Positions 7,545 through 54,811 of a stretch of 64,000 nt of DNA are shown one piece after another. Each line of letters opens with the position of its first letter. Positions within the stretch are counted from its first letter, which is position 1. Source of the stretch: Rotaria socialis (lineage: Eukaryota). The DNA lies in contig CAJNYD010000503.1 in assembly GCA_905331295.1 (NCBI GenBank), forward strand, positions 1-64,000, written 5' to 3'. Position numbers and translations under genes: made by a program. Under the pieces are notes generated by a model. The model worked only from the letters and a program-made list of their open reading frames with translations. It was not told the origin of the DNA and made no database searches.

Positions 7545-7738
7545 TAGGGGAGTCACATTTTAATTTTAATTTAAAATAAATGCAATTTTTTTAATGAAAA
7601 GTTAAAGCTAGTCACTCTTCTACGAATTGTGCTATTAAATATATATTTATGGGTATCCCGATATTTTGAAGAAGAAAGATGGCCGATCCTGCATAATTTG
7701 TAGAGAAATTTTGATTATTATGAACAAATGTTAACCTT
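7545..7738 (+). mobile_element. Truncated copy of the hAT MITE at 44047-44631
   Basis: Starts taggggagtca; 7608-7738 aligns with about 44252-44380; breaks off at the G-rich tract at 7739. Confidence 0.75.
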
Positions 7739-7790
7739 GGGGGTGGGATGTGTGTGTGTAAATGAAGAGAAGATCGATACCCACACACTC
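7739..7790. repeat. Inverted telomere-like junction (degenerate)
   Basis: gggggtgggatgtgtgtgtg...acccacacactc. Confidence 0.65.
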
Positions 7791-9284: not shown

Positions 9285-9900
9285 TTAACTTTTGAAAACC
9301 CGCACGACACTCGTGATGGGACATCGGCATATAGGACAGTCAGATAATTGTTTACCACAACGAATACACGTACATAGATGACCACAATTAAGAACGACAC
9401 AATCAATATTTGCATCCAAACAAACTTTGCATAGATTTTCGTTGGGGTCTTCTTTAGAGACTTAAATAACAAAATCAACCACAAATGATGTAGAAAAAAA
9501 CAAAAATTATTTTACTTTTTGCATTTGATTCTTTTTTTTGTTTTTCATCACGATAAAGTAATTTAACTTTACTAGTTAATTCTGATTTTTCAACACATCC
9601 AGCAATCGATACATAACTATGTACAAGAATTTGTTGTAATTGTTGAGTTGTTAAGTCATCTATTGATTCTAATGTTGATATATCATTGAGAGTCATGCAA
9701 GCATAATTTAATTTTGGTGAAGCATCTTCAATTGGAGCTATCGGTTCTGAATGTTCACTTACACATGATGAGTTGATATTTGACGATGGTGTCTAAAAGC
9801 AAATCGTAAAAGAAACTAAATAAAAGGATAAGACATGAATCATTCATATCAAAATTTTACGGACTGAACAATCATCATACTATTGTTGAGATACATCTTG
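9285..9900 (-). pseudogene. RNF34: 3' fragment of an RNF34/RFFL (CARP-family) RING E3 ligase; N-terminal FYVE-like part missing
   Basis: Exon 9518-9792 has LTTQQLQQIL...GCVEKSELTSKV; last exon has C3HC4 RING LCKVCLDANIDCVVLNCGHLCTCIRCGKQLSDCPICR...VRVFKS*; upstream exon is cut at 9900. Confidence 0.75.
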
Positions 9901-10512: not shown

Positions 10513-13500
10513 TTAGGAGTAAGCTCAGCATGGTTTTAAAATTATGAGAGATGGTTGCTTAAATTTTTTCTCGCTCACTAGTTGTTTTACTTTTTCTACT
10601 TCCTACAATTTTCATCAGCATCCATTGTCGCGTTGAGAAGATAGGTTTTTGAGGGAGGAGGACCGGGTTTCCCGTTAATTTACATAAAATAGATCTCGTT
10701 TTCCCTAAACTCAGTTCAATTTGAAACTTTTGAACATTCGGTCGGTTAGGTTAGCAAAAATGCCAACCGATCCCATCTCTGTTCCCCACCAGTCGTATAC
10801 TTCACTAGTTATATATTGTTGCAAAGAGATTTCTGTCTTTTTGGAAAATGATATTGCCCCAAATTCAAATTCCTCAACATATGTACTTATAAACTATCGC
10901 ATGATTGCCAGTATTTATCATTAAGATTTTAGATAAAATGAAAGATTTCTACATTCTATTTATTCTTACGTTGGATAATGTTGATTTATTTGAAACATTA
11001 CTCGAACGTTTTGCTCGCCTAAATCGTTCCAAATTATAACGTGCAAAATATAATTTATAACATTCAAAACCTTTTTTGATATAAAATATAGAAAAAGAAA
11101 CAAATAATATATTCTAAACATTTGATTTGTAATTGGTACCTTTAGGTGATAAATTTGTTAGATCAAGTTTTGATACACGTTTTTCAAATAAAGCTAATTG
11201 TGAGTCTCGATTAAAATCTTCTACACATGTTATAAACCAATTTAAGCCAAGTTCACGACCAAATGAACTTGCATTTTCATTTGTGATTAATGTATCCCAT
11301 AATTCTTCACTACGTTTTAATATTAAATAAAGATTTCCTTTTTTTAATAAAAATGATAATAAATCTAAATGAGTTTTAATTGATTCTTGATGTGTAAAAC
11401 GCCCATCAACTAATGTATCAATCGTTACATGTCCATGTGTTTTATTCCAAACATCTAATTGACATGTTGATAAACTTCGAATTAATGCTGATATAACATC
11501 ATGCTTATGAACTAATAGTGATATTAAATCTGGTTCTGAACGTTTAAATGTATTTGTTGGATTATGAAGTAATAATTCATATAAATGTTTTAACGCTGAT
11601 ACAAGCCAACCTTGATTACGTTGTAAATCAGTCATACATTTAAGACAATAATCACGTTTAAGTTCATCATAAGATGAGCGACCCTCACTAAATACACGCA
11701 AATGACAATATAGAAGATGATCAAGCATTGAACGATGAAGTCGATCTTCATGTGCCATATCCCAAAGCACTTCTAAAACACGAGCAGCAGAATCTTCTTG
11801 ACATCCTCGACCGATAGCACCAAGTAATTCAATAAGCTTTTCTTTTATAGGAATGGTTTCAGTTTTCCATGACTGTATAAATAATATTCAATTATATATG
11901 TGGGCAACAACAAAAATTATTTATATTACGTTATCAATGAAACCAATTAGACAGTTGAGTTGTTCTAGATTAAATTTCGTTGCGGCAGATGCAATCAGAC
12001 TCAATAAATGATCCACTGTGGCTAATGATCGACCATGCTGAAAAAAACCCAAACACTAAATACGCTGTTCTTGCTGCGTACTCAAAAGAAAAAGAGTACA
12101 CTATAGAATCGGCCAGTGTGTCCGCCCGTCCGGCCGTTTACACGATAACTCTTCACAATTACATTCGATTGAGCTGAAATTTTGTGCACAGAATTGTCTC
12201 ATCAATATCTAGGTCGAGTTCGAAGATGAGAAGAATCCGTCAAGAAATGACTGAGTTATCGAAAAAATTGCCATTTTTGATCAGACCATCCTTGAGGGGG
12301 AGTACAGGGATTTATCAAAAAAACTTTTTTTTTCCAGAATTATCCACAACATATATAAATCGACTCAGTTTTTAACGCTGATTCTGAATCTGATATTAGT
12401 TTTGAACTAAATCGTAGCTTTCTAACGAAACATCGCCTGAAAAGCGTCTCAAAATGCACAAAAACTGCATCCAGAAATCAAGCTGCCTAGTTTCTCATGA
12501 TAATTTTGGCGTTCAGACATTCTAGAATGACTCATATGTCCCATGCACTTTTTGCAGTACACATAACTCTCGGATGAAATCTGAAGTTTTCACATTTATT
12601 TATTTTAAAGTCTAGTAGAATCGGTAGACTCGAAAAAAGTTATCCATTGAAATTATGAACAGCTGAATTAATTTGTAGCTTAGTTTCTTTTCTTGATTAC
12701 GTTGTAACTCATTCGCATCACCCGGTGAGTCACAAGAGTATTGTCGTGTGTTCTATCGAGTTTTTGATCAATTTCTTCACGATCCCTTTATTTGATCTCC
12801 TTCAAAATATTAATTAAAACTTACTTAATATATTATAACGAGACAATATTTCTATACGATCATACATCAATAGCATATCTTCTGACTTAAATGAATAATT
12901 CGTTGCTAATTTGCCAACTAAGTGTGATTTGGAGGAGGTCAGAAATTCTACATTTATACTTTAACAGTTATTTTAGATTGCGTTTCACAAATGAAAGATT
13001 GCGATTCAACAGGAAAAATAAATTTTCAGTATGTACAAATCTGATACGAATATAAAAAGGGAACAACATTAGAAGTTATTTTACTGTTGACACCTAGAAT
13101 CTGATCAGAAAACTATATATATCGTACTTTCGATAAGCCATTTAACCCATTGAGTAGGAGCTAGCCTACAGTGATAGCATAAATCAGCCGAATCAAAGCA
13201 CGATTTAGGATTTAAATAATGTAAAATATTTATTATCCGTTCGAACTCTGAGAAGACTCTTATAACGTTTGGGCAAAATTATTTTCTCATCAACATCAAA
13301 CTTTTAACAGAGTATAATGTTTGTGCAAAGTGTCTATTGCTCAAGAGACCTTTTTTTATATGCAGACTTGCAAAAGTTGCAAGATAGAGCAGATTAATTG
13401 AAGTGAAAACTGTGACACTGGTATTCTTAAAGAATTTCGTTATTCATTAGTCTCAATAAATATCAGTTTTCATTTTAAGTGATAATTTTTCTCGGAATAT

Positions 13501-14089: not shown

Positions 14090-14233
14090 TAGAAACCATC
14101 ACAGACCGTGACAGAGGGACTTCAGAAACCATCACAGACCGTGACAGAGACCTCAGAAACTATCGCAGACCGGGACAGAGAAATGAATTAATTAATCAGC
14201 TAACTAATTAATTAATTTCTCTGTCCCTGTCTG
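14090..14233. repeat. About 3 tandem ~31-33 bp units running into a hairpin next to the assembly gap
   Basis: agaaaccatcacagaccgtgacagag repeated; cagaccgggacagagaaat...atttctctgtccctgtctg inverted repeat. Confidence 0.7.
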
Positions 14234-14239
14234 TGGGGG

Positions 14240-14249
14240 NNNNNNNNNN
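14240..14249. other. Assembly gap (10 N) within a USP24 intron
   Basis: N run flanked by a G run and a C run. Confidence 0.95.
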
Positions 14250-22086: not shown

Positions 22087-22109
22087 AGATATTGCTTTTC
22101 AGTCCGAGA

Positions 22110-22520
22110 TCAATACTTCGCGGCGATAGAAGATGGCTCATTTCTGCCGACGCCACCCGACGACGTTTTTATCCAACATGTAGACGAGCCAAAATTTAAA
22201 GTAAATGCTCTGCAGGAGGACGTGGCTAAACACCATGCACAACAGACACTAAATGTCATCGGTGATGCATTTACTAGTTCGTTGTTGGGATAGTCCCAAT
22301 TCGTGCTGACTGTAAAATTTGAACAAGTGTTTATAGCTAAAACACGAATTTACATCTTGACAGCACAAAAGAGAAGAGAAAAGGGGACGATTACCTGTCG
22401 TCGTTGTCGTTGTCGTCGTCGTCGTCGCTGTTGTTGTTGTTGTCGTGGCCGTTGTTGTTGTGGTAGTAACCGTTGTAACCGTAGTTGTCGTGGTAGTCGT
22501 CGATATATCTGTATAAACTT
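22110..22520 (-). CDS. 3' exons of a protein with a poly-Thr (mucin-like) stalk and a C-terminal PAN/Apple domain
   Basis: Exon ~22394-22520 is poly-Thr (ACN repeats); last exon reads NWDYPNNELVNASPMTFSVCCAWCLATSSCRAFTLNFGSSTCWIKTS...KY*. Confidence 0.7.
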
Positions 22521-27954: not shown

Positions 27955-28520
27955 TAATCTTCTAATCGAGTAGTCGTGATTCGAAGTTTATCTATAACAA
28001 ACGAAAAAGTTTCCTATGATAGAAATATCAAAATTATTATGAATATCGATAAGAACTCGATTTATATATTTTTTTAGAAATAAAAACATCATTGTGTAAC
28101 ATATACCTTCGATGCAGAAAATACGAAAGAGGGCGCCCGATGATGGTTATAATATATAATCAATATTTTTTTATAGAATAGATCTGAAATCGAAGCTGGA
28201 ATATTATCATTTTAAAAATTCGTAGTATTATCTCGATTCTTTTTTTCGCAAAATACTCGAGATTTAATTGATTACATTATCCATCTATTTTATTATACTT
28301 GGAAAGTTTTTATTGGAGTATGATGTCAAGATGAAACGACAGATTAATTCCTAGATATTATCGAAATGAATACAAGAGAAGAAAGATTGTTTTTTCTATT
28401 TTAAACTTTGAGCGTGTCTTCAAATAGAACATATGTTTGCCTATTCGATTTTATAGTAACGAACAGAGAAAAACATTATACCTCAATTATATTAATCCAA
28501 AGTGGATTTAAAGTTAACTA

Positions 28521-29366
28521 TCGGGTGGCCCGTGTTAAATGTTCCTATCAGTGGTTTTTGAATAACTTCATCATTTTTATTCTCTAGACCTTAGTTATTC
28601 AATTCTCTACAAGATCGAAATCAAAAATTTTCCTGTGGAAAAGATTATTCAACAGGTACAACAGCATCAACTTTCAAAGCGACTTTTAAAACAAACTTTT
28701 GCCAATTTTTTACAATGGCACACAAAACGAACAGAAGCAAAGATGTTACTGAGTACTTTGAAGTGTACTCTTTCTCGTCGTGTAGCTCAGAACTCGTTGA
28801 AATCAAACGAAAGATCGAAAAATCTGACTTTTCGAAAATTCTCTTCAAAATAGCTTAAATTAGATATTTGGCGTTAGATGAATTGAAGAAAAAAATGAAG
28901 ACTCAAATTTTGCGTCCGACTTTGGTAAATTAGGCCATTTCGATCAAAATGAAAAAAACGAATGCAAAAATGATATTTTGGCTTAATTACGCTTCTTTTC
29001 CTAAAAGTATCGAAATTGCAGATTAAAAGAGCTGAATTCTGGCAACTCTGAAAGATGAGATACTTAGAGCGCGCATTAAAAGGGTCGGTGTGGAAACTCC
29101 TCAAATATGATCGGAAGATAGAGCTTGTTGAGTGCTGCAAAATACCTGCATTATTTAATTTTTATCGTCGCTGAGCAACGAAAAACTCTACAAAAACTAT
29201 TTTCCAGCTTTGAGAGTTGATGCTGTTATACCTGTTGAATAATCTTTTCCACAGGAAAATTTTTGATTTCGATCTTGTAGAGAATTGAATAACTAAGGTC
29301 TAGAGAATAAAAATGATGAAGTTATTCAAAAAACACTGATAGGGACACTTTACCTGGGTCACCCGA
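28521..29366. mobile_element. Tc1/mariner-type MITE with ~160-bp TIRs and a TA target duplication
   Basis: ta|tcgggtggcc...ggtcacccga|ta; 28521-28680 is the near reverse complement of 29207-29366. Confidence 0.85.
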
Positions 29367-30715
29367 TACTATAATGACTATAACGCTCTCATCAGAGGCC
29401 AATGCAATATTCATTCACTTCCATTCGCCATTTGTTATATGAATAAATATTCTAGTAAATTTCATGAAGGTTTATTCTTAACGGTTCATAAACTATGTAT
29501 GCAAACTCTACTCCATTCATTCGAGTATGATTTCTTGTTACTCGAATCTCCCAAACTTTTACAGTAAAAAATCGAAGGATAATAATTATGATCGGTATTC
29601 TAGGCTTTGTCATTTTTCTTTTACTACTCTTTTTGTTTTACATGCTAAATGAACTATTTAATTAAAAATCCGTTTCTATATAGTATAATGTATTATTCTA
29701 TTACTCGATTATTATTGTCGTATATCTTGCTCTTTAGTCGCCACTTATTACGGAGATACATTGATCGACAAATCATGCTCTTGTAAGTCTGTAATATATC
29801 GAACATTATTGATAGTGGATGAATTTTTAGAAATATTGCTTGTAAACAATAGTAGCACGTCAATATTATCAAACAACCATAAGTTATGTAAAATGTGAGA
29901 TGGCAGCAATGAATAAGAATCATAACCCTTTATAAAAATAAAAAGTCGTGGTGAGTCGGTATTGAAAGTGAATTCTGATGAATTTAAAATAAAAAGTTAA
30001 TCTTAACGCTGAAAACTTTTATGGAATTATACTGAATTTCTATCGATATTCAACTGAATTATGGTCTGTGTTATGTCCATTATATCTAGATCTACATACG
30101 CCTATAGTGATATGGTTTAACATGATGTTCGTTGGGAAATAAAATATGTGTAATTTTATCTGTAAAACATCTATAAAACACTATAGACTACTGATCACTT
30201 TCACACGGATCATGCATATAATACATCATTATTCATGTGCACGCGAACTAATTGGTTGCCAGGCATATTGACAGGGAAAACTGGTGATAACTCAGTAATA
30301 GATATCGATCGCGATCAACCATAGGTAAATGAAAATAATAATATTTACTCGATTGAATGTCATGTTGTACAATAAGAAGAGAAAAATACATGAACTCATA
30401 AATCCAAGCAACCTGACAACTTGAATACGCTGTTATTTCAACGAATTATTCGATTAATACTCTTTTAAAAGTAGCGTTAATTCGGTTGCGATAAAGAATT
30501 TTTGATGATGTAACCGTCGGTGGTTACATTTGGGTGTTGATGTTTGAGACAGAGTGCAAAAAGGAAATGAAATTAGAAACAGTACTTTCAGTCATCACAA
30601 CCGGGAAAATATTTCGAAGTTCCCTGAAAAATGAAATATATCTGACAGTATTTATTCTAGGAAACAGGTCTATATAAATTTATCAAGAGTTCTATAATAA
30701 AAGAATTTTGTTTTT

Positions 30716-33042: not shown

Positions 33043-35393
33043 TTTTTATCAAATATTGTTTAAATAAAATGTGTTCAAAACGAAATCATTATGAAATGAA
33101 TGAGAAAAAATACTTTCAAAAATCTGAATTGATAGGAAAGAAATTATGTACTATCATAGTCAGAAAGAATCATTTGAATCCAACGAATGCCATAAATTAT
33201 ATTATTATCTATTGAATTAATAGATAATATATCATTTACATTTTGTCCATTTATTTTCTATATTATACTTTATTTATCTTTCGTAAGAATTGAGTAAGAT
33301 GTTTATTTTTATGATGTTCGAATTTACAGGGAAATTGAAAGAAAATGGCACTCAGATAAAAACTGTATAAGTCGTGAATTCAATTTTATTTTTTTCGAAC
33401 TTCAAAAAATAGGATTTAAAAAAAGAAGCTTTCAATCTTCTACTATCAAGTTTGTTTTAATAATCGTTTTGAATATCAATCTTCTAAATTTGTGATTTAA
33501 ATCAAAATATTATATTTCACATCATCTTGGTCATTGTATGAAAGAAAGCGACACAAAACCATGATCGTATTTTCCAATCTTTTTATTTTCTCATCAATAT
33601 AAACATGAACCCATTTTCATATAGACAGTTCTATTGTATTTATAACTTCTTCTTTGTAGTGAGGATGTAATATATCTAGGTCTTTCGAATTCGATATGAT
33701 TTTGAATTTGTGATTTAGTCTCAAAGTTATTTTAATTCTAATATAAGTCTAATGCTAAAGCTGTGGGTTTGTTGTTTATCTACTTTGCAAATAAGCAATT
33801 GATTCAATTCATATGATTTCGATAGTTTATAAAGTTTTATCAAGAGAGAAAGTGCAGATTTGGAACTCTCAGCACTAGACAGTGATTTTGGTACTTGGTA
33901 CCTGTACTTTCCCCCTTGGCTATTGTTCAATATATATATATGTATATGTATTTAGGAGCCATTTCACGTAAATCACCATCGGAATGGCTCGAACGAGTGT
34001 CGTCAGATTTCCTTCAATTTAGAATCTTCTCGTCGAGTGAAGAATCTTATGAGCTTTGGTGCAACCCGTTTTGAACAAAATTAAACTATAGAGTTTTTAT
34101 CGTTGCTTCACAAAAATGACCTAGATTAAGAGGGCCTTGACAAGACCATATCTCAAACAATGGCATTACCGATTGAGCCGAAATTTTTCAAGGAAATAGA
34201 TTCTCATGAATTATCAGTAATATGAAATTTCCACTATCGATAAACAGCTTACCGGTGAATATCTTTGAAAAATGTGCAACTTTTCATACTCTGCCCTGCC
34301 ATTCATAGGCATGATTTTGAGATAAACTTTTCTTCCAACAAATAAGGATGATTTGAAGGTTGAACTTGCACAATTAGAAGACCCATCTGAGATTTACAAC
34401 ATCATGGTAAAGATTTCCGTATTCGAGAACTAAATTACTAGATCAATGCTATTCTGTATGTTTTAGAAACAAACAGTACTCTGAATCGAAAAAAGTTCAA
34501 GATCAAGCAATAGAATGGTAAATTGCTTTATTTTAATAGTGGTGTTAAGAAATATCAAGCTAGCTATTTTTTCTGGCATAATGCCAATTGCCCTGACCAG
34601 ATTGACTGACCAATTCGAATAATCCGAAGAAGAGTTATTTCGGTCAACTGTATACGACTGCTACCATTACTTTTCCTATGATTTTTTCATCAACATATAG
34701 AGAGGATACGTCAAATTAGTAATGATACAACAAAAACTTGCCTTTCTTCAACGTATCACGATTGAGAACGCACAAAAACAAATTGAGTTCGTAAATTTTT
34801 ATTCGAATTATACCAGATGGCCCTATTCATTAAATAATAACTATCACGACTATCAAGTACATTTTGGTTGAATTTAAGACGAATTTTTTGTTTTCTAGTT
34901 GTAATAAATTCCCGACGTTTACAAAATTTTAAAGAAAGATTATATGTGAAAAATTGATACTTTTATTATATATAACAACAAGAGTATTTTAAATCGATTA
35001 ACATTCAAATATTGAACGAGCTTATTTATATCATCAACGAGTCAGTATTCGTTGTAACAGTCAACCTTTCACTTTCATCAAACTAACTTATGACAGCTAT
35101 ATCTTCTTATTTCTTCTTTGGCACATTCCTGATTGGTGCTAAACTGTTCGTTGTCCTTGAATAATGAGTGAGGCTATTGATGAAAGAAACAGCAAATGAC
35201 TAGACGAGAGCAGTGAATAAGAAAAAATAGTTGAACTACAAATAACTTTTGGGCATCATTCATCGAGTTGTACTATCGATGGTAGACAGAAAAAAAACTA
35301 GGCAAAATTGAACATAGGAAATAAACAAGTGGTAGGACTCATTTATCATATAGATCGTGGTGCGAAAGTTACGGGACAAAATATTTGTTCATT

Positions 35394-36232
35394 TTTTACC
35401 CACTTGAAAGTACTCGAGACAAGTGAAAAGGAATCATGTAGAAACAGAATTCGATGCTCTGTTTGAATATGGGCTCCGAAAGTTTTTGTCTGATTTTTCT
35501 CCGGAGTAGGAAGGGAATCTTAGAAAGACCTGAACAATTTTCCATACATTTTCGTATTTCCATTATTGGAATCGGTAACTAAAAGTCGGAACCTTTATTA
35601 ATACATTAACTTGTAGAGCAAAATTTATCCTACGAAATTCACTATTTCCGTTCTTTTTTTTGTCTTTTGGGAAAACACCTCAATTTTCGTTATTCTTGCA
35701 CTCTTTTTCGTAAAAAGTTCGTTACACACGAAATGCCTATAGTTTTATTTGAGTATAAACTACAGATTAATTCAATATTTCATTTGTAAAAACATATTTG
35801 CTGTACAAAAATTATCGAGTCGGATAAATGTTAGCATCTTTACCATGGGACCTATAGAAGTTAGCTAAACCTGTTATTCATTGCTGGAGATAATCTTTTA
35901 AGCCTTAACAAAATGAAATAACTAATCTCAACCAAAAACAGACAGAAATTTTCCAGGTCAATATTCAGAAAGAGTGCAAAATTTTGGTTCTAGTCCATAG
36001 CTTTTAATGCGTACGACATACTTTCAAGCAAGCCAAAATAAAAAATATACTGTACAGAAACTTCGACCCACTTGTTCCGTCCAAATTAATTTTTTATGCC
36101 TCTTAGATATTCCCTCAATACTCTAGAACAAAATTAGACAAAAAATTTCTGAGCACATTCAGAAAGAGCATCAAATTCTGGTTCTACATGACATATTTTC
36201 ACTTGTCTCGAATACTTTCAAGTGGATCAAAA
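35394..36232. mobile_element. MITE-like element with ~100-bp diverged inverted repeats
   Basis: ccacttgaaagtactcgagacaagtgaaaa...gatgctct pairs with agagcatc...ttttcacttgtctcgaatactttcaagtgg. Confidence 0.65.
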
Positions 36233-38026
36233 ATCTCGTCATATTACTAAAAAAATTGGCATTAACCGAAGACAAAGAATTTTCATGTATTAGTAATGTA
36301 GAAATTTGGTTACTTGTTCACGTCATCATTCGAATTTATATCCAGACATATATCTTTCTCCCAATTAATTTTTCGTTCTACTCTTTATTAATTCCGAATG
36401 GTCTGATTTAAACTGTAGCAATAGTGGAATAGTCTTCAACATAATTTGTTTATTAAAACAAGAAGTGATATTAATGTTCATCTACGTGGTTGCTGCATTT
36501 CTCTACACATGTTTTTATTTAACGAAGATCGACTACACCATTACATACGTAGTCCTTATTCGATGGTCCATTGAAGCTACATTGGCTTCGTATATTTTTT
36601 GGCATACTATATTAAAGGTAACGAAGTTTGTCTGAATGGACCTCATTTATCATCTATTTTTGCAATGATTATCAAGGTGCCATTATTCATAATGATACGA
36701 TATACCGAAAGTGAATCTGATTTTTTTCTACATGACTTAGGAAAGTTTCTTTTTCATACGTTATGTTGTGTATCTAAAAATAAAGTATTTGATTTAGAAG
36801 GTAATCATTCATTGAATCGTCAATAGGCCTCGTATTTTTCTTTCGATAAAATATCAATAAATCGAATTCTAGTAAAAAACGATTCTTAATGCGGTAAAAA
36901 TCCCTTCTGGTTTCGATTTGCAAAAAAATTGGAATTTTACTTTCTGACCAAGAAGGAAATTATAGATTTCAAGACTTGAAAATCATTCGGAAATTTATTT
37001 TACAAGTTTCTGAAAAACAAAAGAAAGGCAGAAGTGACAAAAAGGACATTACGAATGAAAGTGAGTGATATCATTCCCAAGAAATGTCAATAGTTTCGGT
37101 TCCGACATGATCCTAAAAGTGTTAATGAAAATTCGAAGCCGATTTCGATTCAAACAAAGTCGATTTGGTGTTATGCCTATCGAAACCAATACTTTTTAAC
37201 GGATTAGACCAAGGTAAAAATTGTAAAATATCAACTTTGTCTGATAGGATAAAATACGTGTCCGAATCGAAAATTTACTTATTAAAATTGTATATAGAAT
37301 TATCAGCATTCAACGTAATTCTAATCATGTTTATTCCTTATTTTTAGAAAGCAAATTTATAGTTCTGTAATTGATATTCAGCATTGCATAGTATTGTTTT
37401 TTAGGCTGTCATCTTCTCAGAATGAGAGTTGTCTGTCGATCGTCTCAAGAAAAAATACGTAGAATATATAACAATGAGCACATTTAAGTAGACTTATCAA
37501 ACAAGTTTATTTTCTATCAAACGAAGAAAAATAATTTGATTGACTGCAGATGAATCTAAGGTATGATGGGAAAATGTCGAAAACAAAATTGAGGGATGAA
37601 AATGTGGATGTAACAGTAAGGGTGATGTTTTCGATATTTTTCCATCCATTCACTTCGATACGACATATACATGCCTAACGAAAGAGAGAATAGACGTTTG
37701 TTGTAACAATCAAAGTGCGTTCGACCAATGATAACGCTAATAGGAAATGACCGGTAAACAAGCACGGCGACAGAAAGGAAGAGAAACGACGGACGTTCTT
37801 TTTCCGTTCGTCATCTCCTATGCTGCTCAACTGCTTCAACCGTAACACTGTTGAGCAAACAATATCATTTTTAATAAGCGAATAAGACTGAAAAAAAGTC
37901 GATTCGATTCGACTTCTTTTTGGATTGCTTTTTGGATTGCTTTTTGTTGATTCGATTCTCAATGATTAACTATCCTTTAGTTCGAAATATATTGTTTTTG
38001 TTCTCAGACAAAAAATAAATAGATCA

Positions 38027-39770
38027 ATGAGTGATACACCGAAAAAGAAACGAATTGAAGAAAGCGAACAGGTTGTTGATGAAAAATACGAATATATTAC
38101 AAAACTACCTGATGGAGGTTATGGTTGAGTAATTGCTATTACTGCGATGGTATTTTATTTTTTAAATTTATTATCATTAATATTTATTTTATTTTATTTT
38201 GCTCATCGACTTAGCTTTGTAATCTTGTTTGTGATGGGACATTGTTTACTTTCGATAGCATGAAATTTAATTTACAAAAACATTTTGGATGTTCTGACAT
38301 GATTATTCTTCTCGCGGTATCTGCTCCTTGTGGCATTTATTTATTAGTTGGTATGTTTAATTTCGTCTTTTTACGAAAACTAAAACAGTTATTTTTTTTT
38401 TGTAAAGGTCCAATTGTATCAGTTCTCTCTAAGAGATATAGTTTTCGACTAACAATTATAATTGGAAGCATTGGTTCAGCTGCTTGTACATTTATATTAA
38501 CTATGTCAAGAAATCTTATGGAATTCATAATTATTCATGGAATAATTGGCAGTGTGTTTTTTTGCATGGTTTATCTTTCGTTCGTAGAATTATTTAAAAA
38601 AGAATGTATCCATAATTTTCTTTTTTTCTCGATAAATCTAGATCAATAGTAGTGATTTCATTTTATTTTGACAAAAAACGAGCTATTGTCAATGGTATAT
38701 GATCAGTTAGTCAATGCTGTGTTTAGATTTGTGTATTGCTTGTTTTAGGATTCGTTATGGCTGGCGGAAACATTGGTGCTTTAATATTTTATCCATGGTC
38801 TAAGTATGTGATGGAAACGTTTGGTTGGCAACGTGCTTTACTTACACTTGCTTTTATCATGCTGACATGTATTTTATTCGGAACAATAATGAAACCATTA
38901 AAACCAGAGCGAGTACCAATACAGCGAACGGGTGTAAAATCATTGTAAGTATCTAATCATTTTGTTTATTTATTGTATAATATTACATATAAGGATATCA
39001 TAAAAACAAAACCGGATCTTACAACAGCATCGTCAACTGATGATGCGAATATGGTAAACTTGAAATATATTAATATTTGCAAAAATAAAGTTTATATTTT
39101 CATAGCCATCATCGTTCTACAATCATGCAATGAATACGAATGATCAAATTAATGCTCCTGATGTTTCAAATTTAATTGTAACATCTTCACATGGTGGTAC
39201 TAACACAATATCACCATCACGTCGACCATCATCGAATGCAAATGTTTCTCATCTCTTTGGAGTTCCCGATGCAGAAAATGCATGTCGTCCATTAGATAAA
39301 AAAGATGTACTATTCACTGGCTCAAAACAACAATTTCATACATCACAAAGCAACACGTATGCACCATCGATGATAAATTTTTCAATATTGAAAAATTGGC
39401 AGATGCTACTAATTTATATCGGAAATGTTTTTTCTATGGTTGGATATGGTTTATCAATCGTGAATCTTGTTTTACTTGCAGTTTATGGTCATGGGTTAGA
39501 TATAAGAAGTGCATTACGTTTAAGAAACGTATTTGGTAAATGCAAAAGAAACATAACAACACGATGAGGAACTAAATTATAATCTATTTTTCTTTTTTTA
39601 GAATTTTTCTATACATTAGGCCTACTTTCAGGAGGATTTATGACTATGATACCTCATCTCAGTGCTTTACGCGTTCATAATACATTTTTATTCATTGCTG
39701 GTATTGTAACCGTTTTAGCTGCTTATGCAAATAACTTCATAACTCTTGCGCTCTATGCTGGTGTATTTGG
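38027..39770 (+). pseudogene. Monocarboxylate transporter (SLC16/MCT, MFS) with a nonsense mutation and 3' truncation
   Basis: PDGGYG* (TGA 38126-38128 replaces the conserved Trp); YFDKKRAIVNG, FGWQRALL; coding sequence runs into (GGGTGT)n after YAGVFG, so the final TM helices are missing. Confidence 0.85.
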
Positions 39771-39823
39771 GTGTGGGTGTGGGTGTGCTTGTAGTTATTT
39801 CTATTATGAGCACCCACACTCTC
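39769..39823. repeat. Inverted telomere-like junction
   Basis: gggtgtgggtgtgggtgtgct...agcacccacactctc. Confidence 0.9.
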
Positions 39824-40711
39824 GTAGAAAGAAAATACTCGATATTTTTGGCATTTTATTTTATTTAAAAAGCTTCTCACTCTAGCCTCTCACTTGGGCT
39901 AAAATGTGGAAGTGTCATATATGCTCTAAACTCATTCAATCAATTGAAAAACCCTGTATATAAAAAATTCATTGAGAGACCGATTGTTTTGCAGAATAAT
40001 GGGCCATAAAAATATACACGGTTTTAATGTCTAACTGAAGTTCCTATTTGTCTATGAGCGCCTTATTTTTTCGCACTGTTGCTATTCACTCGTTGTTTGC
40101 CGTTTTTTAAACTCTTTTTTTCCTGATATAATATTGTTAGCGAATGTAATCGTTATATTTAATTTGAAACAAGGTAAGTCTGATATACATATGACCAATA
40201 TCTACAAAATGTTTTAACCAACGAGTTCACCAAGAACTATAATTATTTCCGTTCAGAGCTATTATTTGGCCAATTTTGAAAAACTCTGTACGAAGGTGTG
40301 TGGTTATTACTGTTATTCACATCATAGTTTTAGCATTACACCCGTATTGTATTTAGCCGTGAGTCTAAGTGATGAGGAGACAAACCGTCACACCCCTCCC
40401 CTTCCGTTAATTTACTAGTTGGCTATTTTTTTCGTTGCACCGAAACTGTTCTTGGGTTGCATTAGTTTCGCTCAAAATATTTTCATATTTTGTGCTAGTT
40501 AAGATTTTTTACTGGAAAGTCTTTCATTGGTTCGTACCCTTCCCTTTATGTGAACATATATGTGTGTGTTGAAGGAGAACGTGAGCCTGCTCTCGTGTAT
40601 ACATGAGTTTCATGTTCGTTACTGCTTTATCAGGCTTGTGCGCTTGATCACACACGCGTGCCTGTGCGTACTGAATTTGGATAAACTTTCTCCTTTTACT
40701 GCAATACGACT

Positions 40712-43418
40712 TTATTGAATAGAAAAGCGTTGGATCCTGTGAGGCCCATTTTGACCACTCTCAGAGACGTAAATATTGCCTTGACGGTCGAAAGACAAGC
40801 CTACGGGCCAATTTATCGGAGTATCTACACCGATGATGGCAGTGCCTTGTATTGCTCCTTGAGGCCAACGAGTTACTCGATGGTTTCTCGATTCTGCTAC
40901 ATAGAGCGTACTAAATTCATCAACAAAGAGCCCTTCGGGATGCGACAATTGTGTCAGAGCAACACCTTTTCCTTGACCGCCAGCAGCGACAATTCCTGCT
41001 GTAGCGTTTTTATTCCATTTCATTACACGATGATTGAGATGATCGGACACGTAGACAGCGTTTTGTTGATCGACAAAGATGAAAAGTGGAGCATTGAGTT
41101 GACTGAGACCAGAACCTTTTCCATGTCCACCAGCGACAAGATCTCCATTCCTCATGTCTCCTTCCATTCTATATCGTCTTACTTCTTGTTTCTCATTATC
41201 AGAGACGTATAGACATCGTTGATTATCCATAAATAATCCTCTACAACAGACATTATTGATAAGAATCTCACCTTGTATAGTTTCATTACGACGAGACCAT
41301 CGAACGACTCGTCGATTTTGCCAATCACTAATAATGAGACTATCAGTCTCTTTGTCAATTAATACATCAGTCGGACAACACAATTGATTTAATCCATTTC
41401 CTTGGCCTTTTCCTCCAGCTACGACTTGTCCATTTGTGTCACCTATCTTCCATTGGACGATACGATTATTCCAGCTATCAGCAATGATGATCGTTTGATC
41501 ATCATCAGCAACGGAGAGACTATAAGGCCGACAGAGTTCATTAACGATATTGCCTACTCCATTGTTTCCGGCAACAGTCTTTCCATGTGGTGACCATTGT
41601 GCGTTGACAGGAATCCTAGGAATCACTACAATAGATAAACAATGACAAAAACGATTAAAATAAAAGTTCTAGCAAAGTTAATTCTTCATGTAAATAAAAC
41701 GAAGAATGAACTGCGAAATATATATGGGCGTGGACGTAGGTGTGGATCTTGCGTTTCTCCTCATTCAGACCCACACCCACACCCTTTCTGAAATAAAAAG
41801 TGAATAAATGAAGGAAAAACTAGATGCGTCTGTGATATTGGTAAAATGGTTTCCATTTATTTTCTAGAAAATAGCAGCGAATAAGGCATATACAGAGAAA
41901 AATAGATGACGATAGAGAGTGAAAAAATATTTATACACGAAAATGAATTTTTCCGTCCATTTTGTTTGTTATATCTCGATCGTTTGGCAGTAAAGGCCTT
42001 CGAATCAGGCTCCAAACATCCTTATCTCCGGACTCGGGCCCTGTTTCAAAAACCTGATTTTGCAGCTTTCTATTCGACATAAATATAATGACGAAGGGAC
42101 AGTTTTTGTATTTGCATTGCGGACACTTTCAGATTTATTCAATGGCGTTCCCTGTCAAATTCAGCATCAAAATGTTTTATTTCCACGTCAGTGTTTCCAG
42201 AAATTCGTATGTAGAAAAGTCTTTCAGTTGTTAACCGATGTGGAATACTATTTCGATCAGCTGCATTGTCAGACTTCGCAGTTTAACTATTATCGATATC
42301 TTGGCCCTTCACTCATTCTGTCAGAAGAAGCACTTATGAAAGCTCACTAAATGGCACTGCAATTATTTAAATTCGTGATACTAATTTATTATAGATTGCA
42401 ATCTTCACCTTGATTTCTCTCCCGTGAACTTTTCCCGAGAACTATGATCACATTAGTAAATCTTACCACTCCTTACCATTCCTAAGTAACAGTAGTGTCA
42501 AACTTGAATTCGATTGAAAATTGAAATTTTCAATTGAATTCAAGTTAGACATATATGGAAATTTTTATTGGTTCAGTGCATACTGAAATCTGATTGCATA
42601 ATAGAAAACTATGCAATAAAAATATTCAGGTCATTGTTTGTCTGATGAATTGACCTTGAAAGAACACACCCTCAAAAAGATGAAGGACAAAAACAATGTC
42701 CAATCAGATAAAGAACTAATATAGAGAGAAAGAAGAAAATAACATGCTACTAGAAAGGAAACATCACCAACATATTTGAAAAAGTTAATTCAGATCAATT
42801 TTTGAACAAAGAGTTAAGATGAATTGCTAAATTCTAATGAATTCTGTCGATAGGTTTAATTTTAATATACTCACAGTTCTGTGGTTTACAAATATAAATC
42901 AATTGACTCCAATTAATTTGATCATTATCAATTATGATGGTTTTATTTTCACATTCTTGAATAAATTGTTGAATTTTTCGTTGCGTTTCATTTAATTTCT
43001 GCTTCAGTCTTTCAATATCATTTTCAGCAAAATTTTCTTCTTGTCGATGAGAACGAATTTCTTTTGTAATTGGTTCTAGTTCTTGTATTAGAACTGTTCT
43101 TTGTTTATTGATGAGTTCAGTGAGTTCATGATGAGCATTTTCTGCTGCTTTTTCAACTTTTCTAATTGTTGTCTTTTTCCATTCTTCAATTTGATCAAAA
43201 AGATTGAATGATAAATAATTTGGTTGGTCTAATTTTTGAATTTGATCAAAAAGTTCATCATGTGATTGAACTATTTCGTTATCGAATTTCGTCGATAAAT
43301 CTTGTTCATGTTCTTTGAAATCCTTTGAGCAAAAATAATTTTTACATCCAACACAAAATCGTCTAGCGGCTGGTTTATTACATGTCGAACATAGATTTGA
43401 ATCATCTGTTGTTGCCAT
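40712..43418 (-). CDS. B-box + coiled-coil + NHL-repeat protein; exons 43418-42875 and 41625-40712
   Basis: CSTC...CVGCKNYFCSKDFKEH B-box; NHL repeats (VAGGKGQGNGLNQL..P, YVSDHLNHRVMKW); compatible phase-1 donor and acceptor. Confidence 0.8.
41726..41785. repeat. Inverted telomere-like junction inside the putative B-box/NHL intron
   Basis: gggcgtggacgtaggtgtgg...acccacacccacaccct. Confidence 0.85.
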
Positions 43419-43424
43419 TTCTCT

Positions 43425-43542
43425 TAAAATAAATTCCCATAAATTTTTCTGAACTAAATTCTGAAAATATTTTTATCTAAAATAAATTCCCATAAATTTT
43501 TCTGAACTAAATTCTGAAAATATTTTTATCTAAAATAAATTC
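43425..43542. repeat. Tandem duplication, 53-bp unit x ~2.2, just upstream of the B-box ATG
   Basis: taaaataaattcccataaatttttctgaactaaattctgaaaatatttttatc repeated exactly. Confidence 0.85.
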
Positions 43543-43591
43543 ATATGAAAATTTATAAAGAAACGATCTTATATGACTCCTTTCATATGTT

Positions 43592-43835
43592 GTGAAACTC
43601 ACACATATTTTCGAAGAAAATGTTGAGCGTAAGTTTAAAAGCGAGATTTTTGCGGCTCCCCCTCCCCATTACACCCACTTACAGACACCACCTTGTATTA
43701 CAGATAGTAGCAAGCATGCAAAAACTAAATAAGACTTTTTCTGCCGATCGATTTTCTTGCAGCAAATATCGCACCGCGCATTATGTATAAGCAAATTAGG
43801 CGAAAAATCATATGTGAGTTCCACATTTTAGCCCC
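43592..43835. mobile_element. Short MITE-like element
   Basis: tgtgaaactcacacat pairs with atatgtgagttccaca(ttttagcccc); related ends at 30716 and 39896. Confidence 0.5.
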
Positions 43836-44046
43836 GAAGGACCTGCGCTAACAAGCGTTTTCATTTAGAACTTCAATTGAAATTTCCTTCGCTTCGCATA
43901 TCTATGACTAAGTCTGTGTACTATAAAGTTATATTAGTCGTCAATGAGGTGATATATGTTTGAATCAAACAACTACATGCAACCAATTCGACAAGTTTGT
44001 ATCGTCTTAAACGGCAGGCTTATAAAATAAATTAATGGATGCGCAC

Positions 44047-44631
44047 TAGGGGTGTCATATTTAAATTTTAAAAAATTTATTAAATCGGGAAATAAATTTT
44101 CAAAAATTTAAACTTAAAATAAATTTAAATTAAATTGTTTGAAATTCAAATTAGTTAAATTTTGAAAACTAGCAGATAAAAATAGTTTTTGACTTGATTT
44201 CTACTATTTAAAGTCAAATTTGAGTATGTTTCCTGTTTTCTAAAGTTAAAACTAGTCATTCTTCTATGAATTGTGCTGTTAAATATATTTTTATGAGTAT
44301 CCCAGTATTCTGAAGAAGAAAGATGACGGATCCTGCATAATCTGTAGAGAAATTTTGACTATTATGAATAAATATTAACCTAAAATACTAGATTTTCCTC
44401 TCATTTAGTATTTATTACTGTTAAAGTCACGTATTTCTCTCGTAGCAATGATGTGTATCCATCCAAACAATTTATTAAATTTAAAATTTAAATTTAAAAG
44501 AATTTATTAAATCGAGAAATAAATTTTCAAAAATTTTATTTAAATTTAACTTCATAGAATTTAATTTTAAATTAAATTAACTTTTCACGAAGTTAAGTTT
44601 AAATTAAATAAACTGTAAATTGACACCCCTA
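44047..44631. mobile_element. hAT-type MITE with 11-bp TIRs and an 8-bp TSD
   Basis: atgcgcac|taggggtgtca...tgacaccccta|atgcgcac. Confidence 0.9.
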
Positions 44632-45174
44632 ATGCGCACATTAGTGAAAATTGAACGAAAAGCTATCTGAGTGTAACAAAGTGAATTTCTCTATGAAGTA
44701 TAAGGGTGTTATCAATAAATTTCGCAGTTTAATTTTTGTTTAGACTAGATGTTTGGCCAATTTAGAAAACGATGAACAAACCTAAACTGATTCAGTTTAT
44801 TTCTGCAACCAAACAAGCTTATTCGTCATTTGATGAAACTTTTCTTTTTGGTTTTCGTATGTGAAATATGATGCAAAAAGAAGTGACGAACTTGCACGAA
44901 TGAAAAAATCAGGCCCTTCTTTTCTGCCGAAAGAAAAAAATGAAACAAAAACAAGTCTTCTGAGTAAAAACAATTTTGCAAGAATGATTTTACGGAAGTG
45001 AAATTCTGCTAGAATAGGCCTCTTCAAATGCCAAACACAAAACTATTAAGATGATAACTGCATCCTAGGATTATAGCTCTTCTTGGATTTTCGGGAATAT
45101 CACATTAATTTATAATTAATTTAATAATTTGTTTTGCATTCTCTAGTTATAAATGATTTATTTTTATTTTTTTC

Positions 45175-45363: not shown

Positions 45364-46903
45364 TTTCGTTGTTATATTTGTCACTTGATACTTTTTAATT
45401 AGCGAAAATGAATTACTCATAGTATTGTGTTAGTTCTACTCACCATCACCTTTTGTTGATTCTATAACTCGTTGAAAATTTAATTGTTTGCCATAAAAAA
45501 AAATACTTTTCTTTATATTCATACAGTACCATAAGAGAATAAACGAGCAGCATTCTTTCACGCGCGGAAAGAAAAGTTATTTTTGCTAAGAATACGACAT
45601 GAGTTTGTTTTGAAGTATTTCGATAGTATATGACTCATTAACATACAAGAACAACATAGAGTCAGCTGCAACGAATCGAAATGTTTGTAAAGCATTATTA
45701 TGATGCTAAATCAGCGGAGTGAGGGCGGATGAGCTGATTGGAATCATACTCAATTATTGATAATCATTGCAAATTACAGGCAATCGACGTTGATCAATAG
45801 CAATCGATATTTTTTTAATGGAAATTTTACAAAATGCTTATTCTATACTAGAGCGATAGACGCGTCTGCACATGAAGCAATTGATGAATCGATACAATGT
45901 TGATTAGACAGACTTGACTGAGCAATTATAGAAGAATATTCATTTTATTTTAATTGCATAGATTTATTGGGAACTGAACTATTACTATATTAATGAAAAA
46001 TCTATCATCGCCTATTACGATAAATGAGTTAGACGCGTATGTCCGAATTGTCGAGCATTTTCTTGTTACAAATTCTAACAATGATATCTGATTTCATGCT
46101 TGCTAAAAGAATATGTATAAATGAGTGTCTTCGTATGAGTGTTTTTACATGATCGGCCCAACAATGGCAAAAAACCAGTGCTACATTAGTGTTGCAATCG
46201 TTGAAGAAATCACATGTTTCCGACGTTTTGTCGAAACTGGCTGATAAAAAACATTCGAGGCATCGGGACAGACTGAGCACTCAAATATACTTAGGTTAAT
46301 CCGAACGTTGTGTCGAATATTCTTTGTTTCTGAATAGTAGGCTCAAAGAAATTTTGTTTTTATATGAAATAATAGAGAAAAAGATCTACTATTTTTCAAT
46401 GTTACTTCATCAGTGTGGAACTTAACTTTTGTAATTGATCGAAGCATAGGATGTGAGGCTCTGTTAAACTGTAACAGCTACATCCTTACCAGTGGCGGAA
46501 CCACAATAAGTTTAAGACGAATTCGACTGACATACGGAGATTATCGGATCCGGCCAAACAACGAAATCCGCTCGTATCCCGGGAAATGCAACTGAAAAGA
46601 GATCCAACCGATGAAATATATTTTATTAATCGGCTACTAAGTACTATCTGGCAACATTACGAGAGGCCGATCAAAACTTCCACTGAGATTCTGACAAATG
46701 GCTACAGTAGAATCTGATAACACACAATATTAGGGATTCTTATATCGTTTTCGTGTAATCCAATAAACCTAAACTACGGATTGTACCATGCATATCGATA
46801 GGTTATTGCAATCCGCTTCAATCAAACCACATTTTGATTTAAACGTTAGCACTGACACATGCAAATATAATTATTTTTATGAATTGATAAATAATGGAGA
46901 TCT

Positions 46904-46964
46904 TGAGGGTGTGGGTGTGGGTGAGGGTGTAGATGACCAGAAGAATCACACCCACACCTACATC
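46904..46964. repeat. Inverted telomere-like junction
   Basis: tgagggtgtgggtgtgggtgagggtgt...cacacccacacctacatc. Confidence 0.9.
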
Positions 46965-47257
46965 TTGGAATTACGTAGCGAAAATGAATATGATTTGAAG
47001 CCTACCATTGATCAAATAAAGTACGAAGTTTTTGGCGACGAAAATGTGATGAGTAATGCTCGTACATGTGATTCCGCGGTATCCATTATGGGAAAATATA
47101 CAGATGTTGAAATTTTTTTCAATTATACTCTCAGTGAATTTCCTCCCAATCGTGAAATGAAATCGCAAACACTAAGGCTAGATGATCCTCAGATCGCAGA
47201 TATTCTTTGTAATATGTCTAATACTTATTACAGCAGAAGTGATTACTCGAAAGCGCT
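46965..47257 (+). pseudogene. Internal fragment of a TPR-repeat protein, bracketed by two junctions
   Basis: DDPQIADILCNMSNTYYSRSDYSKALE is TPR-like; no start or stop of its own between the tracts. Confidence 0.6.
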
Positions 47258-47321
47258 TGAGGATGTGGGTGTGAACAGGAGTTGTACACATGCATGACGT
47301 GCACACCCACACCCACACCTT
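47258..47321. repeat. Inverted telomere-like junction
   Basis: tgaggatgtgggtgtg...cacacccacacccacacctt. Confidence 0.9.
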
Positions 47322-53656: not shown

Positions 53657-53812
53657 AACGGTAATATGATAGCATAAGAATCATTGAAATAAACTGGTGC
53701 ATAGTCTGTCTCATATGACTCAATCCGGAAGCATTTCGATACGATGGTTACGATATGTGTAAAACTGCATAAAAACGACGTGAAGACAATCTGCAATCAG
53801 CTACTATTTATA

Positions 53813-54799
53813 ACGGGTGTCCCAGAAAGAATGAGACTCTCAGTATTTTAAAGATTTCTCGTCTATTATCCGTGTGATTAAAGCCCTTTTTATTATCAAA
53901 AGAGAGCGCTTGAAATTCTCTACATAACCATATAAGACTAGGCCCACAGACAGTTTTAGATGTATTTGAAAAAAGACTAAAACTAAATACATACAAACAG
54001 CTGCAAAAAGTAAATAAGGGGTGCTCGATAATAAATGGCCGTACTTTGCATTTCATATTTTAATCTCTAAATACGTTTTATTAAAAAACAAAATATATTA
54101 CAAGATGCAGCGTGAAAAGCTCTACAATCTAAACTAAAATTGATTTTAATTGTATCCTTTTGTTTTCAAGAAAAAAAGCAAAACTCTGTGCGACTGATGT
54201 TTGCCATTGCGAAAACCGATCGCACAAAATTTGGAGTCTTTTTAACATAAAAAGTACAGACATAAGATAAATTGCTGTTTGTAAAGTATAGAGTTTTTCA
54301 CGCTGCATCCAGTAGTATATTTTTTTAAAGAAAACATACTAGATGATGAAACAATACAATAAGAAAAAGAAACTCGTTCGTGCAAAAAAAACAACTTTTT
54401 CACAATGACGAAAGTTGGTCATACAGAGTTTTGCCTTTTTTGAAAACAAAAAGTATATGATTAAAATAAACATTAGTTTGTAGATTGCAGAGCTTTCCAC
54501 GTTGTGTCTAGTAGTATATTTTGTTTTTTTAATAAAATGTATTTAGAGATTAAAATATGAAATGCAAAGTACGGCCATTTATTATCGAACACCCCTTATT
54601 TACTTTTTGCAGCTGTTTGTATGTATTTAGTTTTAGTCTTTTTTCAAATATATCTAAAATTGTCTGTGGGTCTAGTCTTATATGGTTATGTAGAGAATTT
54701 CAAGCGCTCTCTTTGATAATAAAAAGGGCTTTAATCACACGGATAATAGACGAGCAATCTTTAAAATACTGAGAGGCCCATTCTTTCTGGGACACCCGT
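53813..54799. mobile_element. Tc1/mariner-type foldback MITE with very long TIRs and a TA target duplication
   Basis: ta|acgggtgtcccagaaagaat...attctttctgggacacccgt|ta; mirrored ORFs 53808-54056 and 54557-54772 reflect the inverted repeat. Confidence 0.9.
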
Positions 54800-54811
54800 T
54801 AGTATTCCATG

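Follow-up and report, generated by a model that had tools for sequence, protein, structure and literature searches.

How a gene can come to end in the middle of an exon on telomere-type repeats is the question raised by one locus of Rotaria socialis, which was examined in a 64,000-nucleotide stretch of DNA (the window). The original prediction was that a broken exon had been healed by de novo telomere addition and that the healed end was later joined to another capped end. Accordingly, the gene, the repeats and the contigs of sequencing runs were compared.

The truncated transporter gene and its long relatives

The truncated SLC16/MCT allele occupied positions 38027–39770 of the plus strand and covered residues 1–443 of 550, as determined by translation and by tblastn of P0001, a 550-aa R. 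socialis monocarboxylate transporter with an MFS_1 domain (PF07690). The remnant of the broken exon (39602–39770, plus strand) encoded 56 aa at 100% identity to P0001. In frame 39604, the codons ending in ALYAGVFG were followed directly, without interruption, by TGGGTG repeats, at the point where P0001 reads FAIAPH after FG, and the third base of the last Gly codon (39771) already belonged to the tract. Exon codons therefore passed straight into telomeric repeats (39768–39787), as had been claimed, and the same joint was found in run contigs. Identity to the intact copy, expected to end at about 39770, ended exactly after 39770. The rest of the transporter was also missing downstream as predicted, the last 107 residues of P0001 having no match better than E 5 by tblastn within the 64-kb window.

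The long form with the 107-residue C-terminus was found in 11 of the 14 protein records of the two nearest clusters, including both Rotaria magnacalcarata records. Among the other three, one ended at FG, one ended an exon earlier, and one was spliced onto the downstream sequence of the window. Since the C-terminus was present in these 11 records and aligned with paralogues, the long transporter form was considered ancestral. Translation also revealed a stop at codon 34 (38126–38128) of the copy in the window. At this base, the contigs of runs X5 and X6 agreed with the window, and those of X1 and X4 had the other base. Judged from its sequence, the short allele looks like a heritable broken allele, of which a stop at codon 34 would be expected. 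The loss of one transporter copy is in itself unremarkable.

Structure of the cassette at the joint

A perfect (TGGGTG)3.3 tract of 20 nt was located at 39768–39787; the bdelloid telomere repeat is given as TGTGGG in passages of two papers (PMC7943196, PMC8494291). The G arm, a 19-nt perfect telomere-type repeat, occupied 39769–39787 of the plus strand and was found in the intact allele too (X4 record 3 and X5 record 8). It was followed by a 23-nt spacer (39788–39810), of which the first 11 nt were visible in the intact path, and by a 9-nt C arm (39811–39819), G-rich on the minus strand, which was obtained from a scan for G-tracts and C-tracts. The arms were able to pair as single-stranded DNA (z -2.6), and the order of a G array followed by a C array was that of a fusion-type head-to-head interstitial telomeric sequence (ITS). 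At the 39770 joint, unique DNA was followed at once by G-strand repeats oriented as in a telomere, and the in-register seed at the break was TGG (3 nt), which was equalled at 6.2% of positions. The downstream DNA common to both alleles (39820–41367) lay in a single contig from 39769 on in X4, X5 and X6. Further downstream, at 41342–42542, a second haplotype was visible in the contigs, diverged and differing by several small indels.

The two alleles in the sequencing runs

The region was present in eight DNA runs from two studies. The contigs of X1, X4, X5 and X6 were compared, and the joint was viewed close up in X4 and X5, one run from each study. The gene-side contig stopped at 39770 in all four runs, and the downstream contig started at 39769 in X4, X5 and X6; a contig of X1, which may be the window's own source, spanned 39741–41367. 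A 58-nt junction contig covering 39741–39798 with zero differences was recovered from both close-up runs (X4 record 2, X5 record 6). In X4, a second path of 794 nt (record 3), known by its two ends with 734 letters between them, started with 39741–39770 and ended with 39769–39798. X4 thus formed a bubble whose two paths, the junction of 58 nt and the intact one of 794 nt, differed in size by 736 bp. In X5, record 8 carried 133 other letters before 39769–39798, that is, a different left flank of the G arm; none of the four X5 records listed was an intact branch departing from 39770, and the full 794-nt path was that of X4.

The branch depths summed to approximately the flank depth in both runs, namely, 25.6 (intact) and 38.4 (junction) against flanks of 61.2 and 53.1 in X4, and 42 (junction) and 20.6 against flanks of 61.3 and 71.8 in X5. 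In X4 and X5 alike, more depth fell on the junction branch than on the intact one (38 v 26 and 42 v 21), contig depth being a poor measure that gives no share of cells.

At the deletion joint (39769–39770, plus strand), the two nucleotides GG were common to exon and arm and were kept in one copy, and 736 bp of the intact allele were absent. These bases, together with TGG in the repeat register, were the few G/T bases that had been predicted at the switch. In the intact allele, a C stood immediately before the G arm. The arm had the same length in both alleles, with zero net repeat bases added and no base inserted; the cassette was whole in the deletion allele, and the joint lay at its outer edge. 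The 736 bp would be enough room for 107 codons, introns and 3' flank. Taken together, these observations indicate that the short allele is a 736-bp deletion which landed on the first bases of a pre-existing telomere-repeat cassette at the same locus, with a probability of about 0.9. This value is a judgement and was not computed, as are the weights of slightly above one half and of just under one third placed on the two leading accounts of how the ends were joined.

Accordingly, part of the expected history had to be revised. The exon was joined not to another capped end but to DNA of its own locus from 736 bp further on, and arm and spacer were already present in the intact path. Whether the intact copy has the same GT tract had been named as a check, and the intact allele does carry the 19-nt G arm, 736 bp downstream. 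The fusion of two separately capped ends at this event was rejected because the intact allele has both flanks, with 736 bp between them. The insertion of a short ITS at the break, which presupposes an empty allele, was also rejected, since the tract is present in the other allele too. The joint, which had been taken as a clue to the formation of such cassettes, informs on the reuse of a cassette and not on its first origin. As for the de novo telomere addition itself, the polarity and the TGG seed agreed with it, but the repeats were not new compared with the intact allele, and the addition is possible only as a hidden step.

Proposed explanation and its alternatives

Most likely, the deletion was joined after the broken exon end had been extended by a few telomere repeats and these had annealed to the G arm already in place. 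A break would have occurred in or near the lost stretch, and the exon end would have been trimmed to the G/T-rich TGG, at which telomerase or a telomerase-like reverse transcriptase could prime and add repeats. The new repeats would then pair with the C-rich strand of the arm, whether by single-strand annealing with the fragment across the break or by strand invasion of the sister or homologue, and the register would be one in which the arm keeps its 19 nt. Finally, flap trimming and gap filling would complete the joint. Single-strand annealing, strand invasion and flap trimming are general repair steps.

A joint at the apparent arm edge follows from this account because any capture by repeat pairing ends there. 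A random point would fall within 3 nt of the outer edge of an arm with p of about 0.003, although the locus was picked for that trait and the value is no test. The exon break end ranked in the top 2–6% of positions 37800–39770 on five related measures of telomere-likeness, which were chosen post hoc. On the other hand, the account of repeat addition is weakened by the fact that no net repeat was left though several registers were open. Bdelloid telomerase reverse transcriptase (TERT) has reportedly been cloned. One survey, in the passage cited, did not find the TERT gene in Adineta vaga (PMC5405514), and naked repeats can invade in random registers (PMC7367193).

The short overlap GG is also sufficient for plain microhomology joining, which gives the same product letters as repeat annealing. 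Thus, the next account, that a protein-bound or fragile arm fixed one end while the other was trimmed by 736 bp and joined through GG by microhomology-mediated end joining, has to be weighed, and it was considered possible but clearly less probable. The 2-nt overlap, the zero inserted bases and the unchanged arm suit such a joining without repeat addition, and three or more interstitial repeats promoted breaks in the blast fungus, as described in part of PMC7367193. Moreover, in a TPR-gene fragment of the window, described below, the codons of a conserved Leu-Glu and a motif that recurs outside the arms had 6 nt in common, an overlap that resembles microhomology with an end already there. However, a base-exact barrier would be required, for which a 19-nt tract is probably short, and the telomere-likeness of the exon end is left unexplained. 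A G-quadruplex stall as the cause was rejected, since the arm at 39769 had three G-runs instead of a four-run G motif and the tract survived; deletions induced by G-quadruplexes (G4) are described in a passage of PMC4654259 as being without the G4 motif afterwards.

Two further accounts were considered very improbable, to the same degree. According to the first, the cassette arose when the exon end, newly capped with a telomere, was at a later time fused to another capped end. Although polarity and the TGG seed suit healing and the head-to-head anatomy suits fusion, arm and spacer were already in the intact allele and the DNA beyond was common to both alleles; healing followed by fusion may well be the route by which cassettes first arise. 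According to the second, the cassette acts as a signal for programmed elimination, as the SFE of nematodes does, and somatic cells lose the 736 bp. The cassette is similar to the SFE presented in PMC13060919 in being palindromic with a telomere seed on each side, and the greater depth of the junction branch in both runs would fit, though it does not measure a share of cells. However, the cut lay outside the cassette rather than in its middle, and the ends were rejoined instead of both being healed. The prevalence of the long form among the protein records (11/14) also argues against elimination, and the codon-34 stop on the short allele, absent from other contigs, fits a heritable broken allele. 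The least credible account was an assembly artefact at a short repeat, because, although the bridging contigs held just 30 exon-side letters, one below the bridging threshold, the 58-nt contig had unique sequence on either side of the 19-nt arm in runs of two studies, and the gene model P0013, possibly not independent of the window, ends in the window's downstream sequence.

Cassettes and arm edges within the window

The cassette at the transporter was one of a family. A C-tract followed within 60 nt after 11 of the 16 G-tracts in the window, a G-tract followed none of the 14 C-tracts, and order-3 Markov simulations gave zero G-tract/C-tract pairs in 8/8 cases. Therefore, the tract is not due to chance. 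Three more cut genes or repeats of the window terminated on arm edges. The TPR-gene fragment (300 nt, 46962–47261, plus strand) was cut mid-frame at the edge of a C arm on the left and of a G arm on the right. Within the open reading frame (ORF) at 46773–47294, the TPR match extended only from residue 64–65 to 161–165 in 57 HMMER matches, corresponding to 46962 to about 47261. The best homologue extended past both arm edges, but had no other match in the window. This ORF reads through the cassette and the TPR fragment, and the arms encode GVGV and HTHT peptides. A repeat copy at 7598–7737 (plus strand), 89% identical to 44242–44381, ended 2 nt before the G arm at 7740. The joints of the TPR fragment and of this repeat copy may represent either first formation or reuse.

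The insertion of two tracts around native DNA in a continuous gene (46904–47319) was rejected because the match of P0024 was confined to the DNA between the arms, the rest of the window giving none at E 0.01. A miniature inverted-repeat element (MITE) with telomeric inverted ends was rejected as well, since the spacers of the 14 window cassettes varied in length (12–33 nt) and sequence. In the window, Rfam gave zero matches at the gathering score, from which a divergent hammerhead could escape, and no reverse transcriptase was detected in the 14 of 18 long ORFs scanned. The frame 22087–22290 had no match in a word-index search. The cassettes were undescribed in the titles, abstracts and passages searched; fig. 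S25 of PMC13564844 may bear on them.

Several other features of the window were recorded. An inverted-repeat element at 1572–1769 had its end precisely where the G arm at 1770 begins and is possibly a further arm-edge joint. Cassettes at 1907–1966, 6010, 41725, 47258–47319, 53589 and 58031 lay about 60–700 nt from the starts or stops of long ORFs, which included DUF7932, NHL, sphingomyelinase, F-box-like and esterase-like ORFs; genes thus lay in arm-bracketed blocks. A UBP24/USP9-type gene fragment (PF25010) at 11020–11887 on the minus strand, with neighbouring exons not in view, ended off the arms. MITE-like elements with long terminal inverted repeats were found at 53811–54801, 28519–29368, 35391–36234 and 44045–44630. 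The stretch 43467–44870 was high-copy in the runs, and a 10-N assembly gap (14240–14249) adjoined a 68-nt palindrome (14166–14233).

Cassettes in metagenomes and recurring motifs

A perfect-arm scan of metagenomes returned at least 119 stretches. From the AT-rich loci among the matches listed, 59 cassettes were called, of which 46 were kept after 13 had been dropped as having self-complementary spacers, as viral (one), as microsatellite-like or as near-duplicates. Only L017 and L103 among the matches listed matched window-like proteins. The viral scan gave one locus, unrelated-looking. Perfect hairpins with self-complementary loops (L008, L019, L039, L083, L109 and others) formed a separate class and were left out of the counts.

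Two short motifs recurred, although the expected counts used the window composition as background and related copies may inflate the numbers. GAGAAG occurred in 7 of the 46 metagenome spacers among the matches listed, with 0.26 expected. TCTTGA was found just outside 8 of the 85 scorable arms among the matches listed (0.04 expected) and 3 of the 25 window arms (0.01 expected). Neither motif was clear in the focal cassette. The extended form (A)TCTTGA adjoined the G arm externally at window positions 9897, 22088 (minus), 23186 (minus), 46902 and 47256, and was also observed outside the G arm in L023, L026, L041, L049, L063, L065, L070 and L076. In AT-rich loci between L012 and L116 among the matches listed, a purine core, AAGAGAAG, was common to the spacers beside the C arm, and several loops were 9 nt long. 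The motif shared by the spacers of the metagenome set (among the matches listed) reached a training score of 252 versus 176–190 in four controls; in the 14 window spacers held out from training its support was marginal (p 0.05 and 0.09), and the focal spacer showed it weakly. A purine skew of the spacers was absent in the window set (p 0.32). The literature search found no bdelloid telomerase RNA. (A)TCTTGA is regarded as a putative flank of the arm-writing template.

Significance of the joint

The two alleles represent a before-and-after pair for a type of junction that riddles variable bdelloid DNA. Such inverted pairs of telomere repeats probably serve broken DNA ends as landing sites that can be used again, and would not be new scars on every occasion. 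A gene may therefore end on a telomere arm that did not originate at that break, and such scars would be counted and dated differently. The role of telomerase in the interstitial repair of the break-tolerant bdelloids becomes a count of arm-length differences between alleles at heterozygous joints.

As the G arm on each strand faces inward, a cassette would catch capped ends from both sides, and the flanks would thus be exchangeable while the cassette stays. A bolder reading, which is doubtful at present, takes the cassettes as two-way landing pads, on whose arms capped ends would land and be continued, so that flanks are swapped around a lasting cassette and rotifer subtelomeres acquire both their gene-sized patchwork and an entry for foreign DNA, and takes AAGAGAAG just inside and TCAAGAT just outside the C-rich arm as the flanks of the template of an arm-writing RNA. 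If true, the motifs would provide a handle on bdelloid telomerase RNA or on a terminon end.

Comparison with known systems

The literature parallels below refer to the passages cited from each source. In telomerase mutants of C. elegans, telomeric ends start synthesis in interstitial tracts of 13–25 nt (10.1101/2022.09.04.506531). The Rotaria joint is similar in that a repeat-bearing end would pair with a short perfect tract and continue into the DNA beyond, and its product does run from the interstitial tract into the tract's own downstream DNA. However, the same source describes an eroded natural telomere with 47–232 bp of repeats kept, whereas the Rotaria joint involves a mid-exon break, no net repeat and an arm of an inverted pair (10.1101/2022.09.04.506531). 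In Adineta vaga, neotelomeres with repeats occur at deletion breakpoints (PMC13564844). BIHER in that species shares the repeat and the animal group, with capped broken ends later extended on the homologue, but restores lost DNA, while re-engagement at an interstitial arm in Rotaria would fix a deletion (PMC13564844).

Vertebrate short ITS and TERC-ITS also show a few in-register nucleotides at the break and a flanking deletion, but they are defined by an empty allele, whereas in Rotaria the tract is present in the other allele (PMC7215372, PMC8537989). As in yeast SiRTA, TG-rich interstitial sites would draw broken ends to telomere addition or rearrangement; unlike the SiRTA translocations to subtelomeres, the Rotaria event is a local deletion onto an inverted cassette (PMC12709191). 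In the microhomology-mediated deletions of polymerase theta, including those induced by G4, one junction is likewise fixed at a G-rich motif with a short overlap, but the G4 motif does not survive and the second end is situated about 50–300 bp off, while Rotaria has three G-runs, a kept tract and 736 bp (PMC4654259). The 3' ends of terminons and Athena elements resemble the cassette in having short reverse-complement repeats, with which G-rich ends pair so that copying can proceed further; in contrast to them, the window is without an Rfam family and without reverse transcriptase in the 14 of 18 long ORFs scanned (PMC6431247). Overall, the joint fails as fresh healing, as a fusion at this event and as an inserted ITS, and works like telomere-to-interstitial-tract capture or a microhomology deletion.
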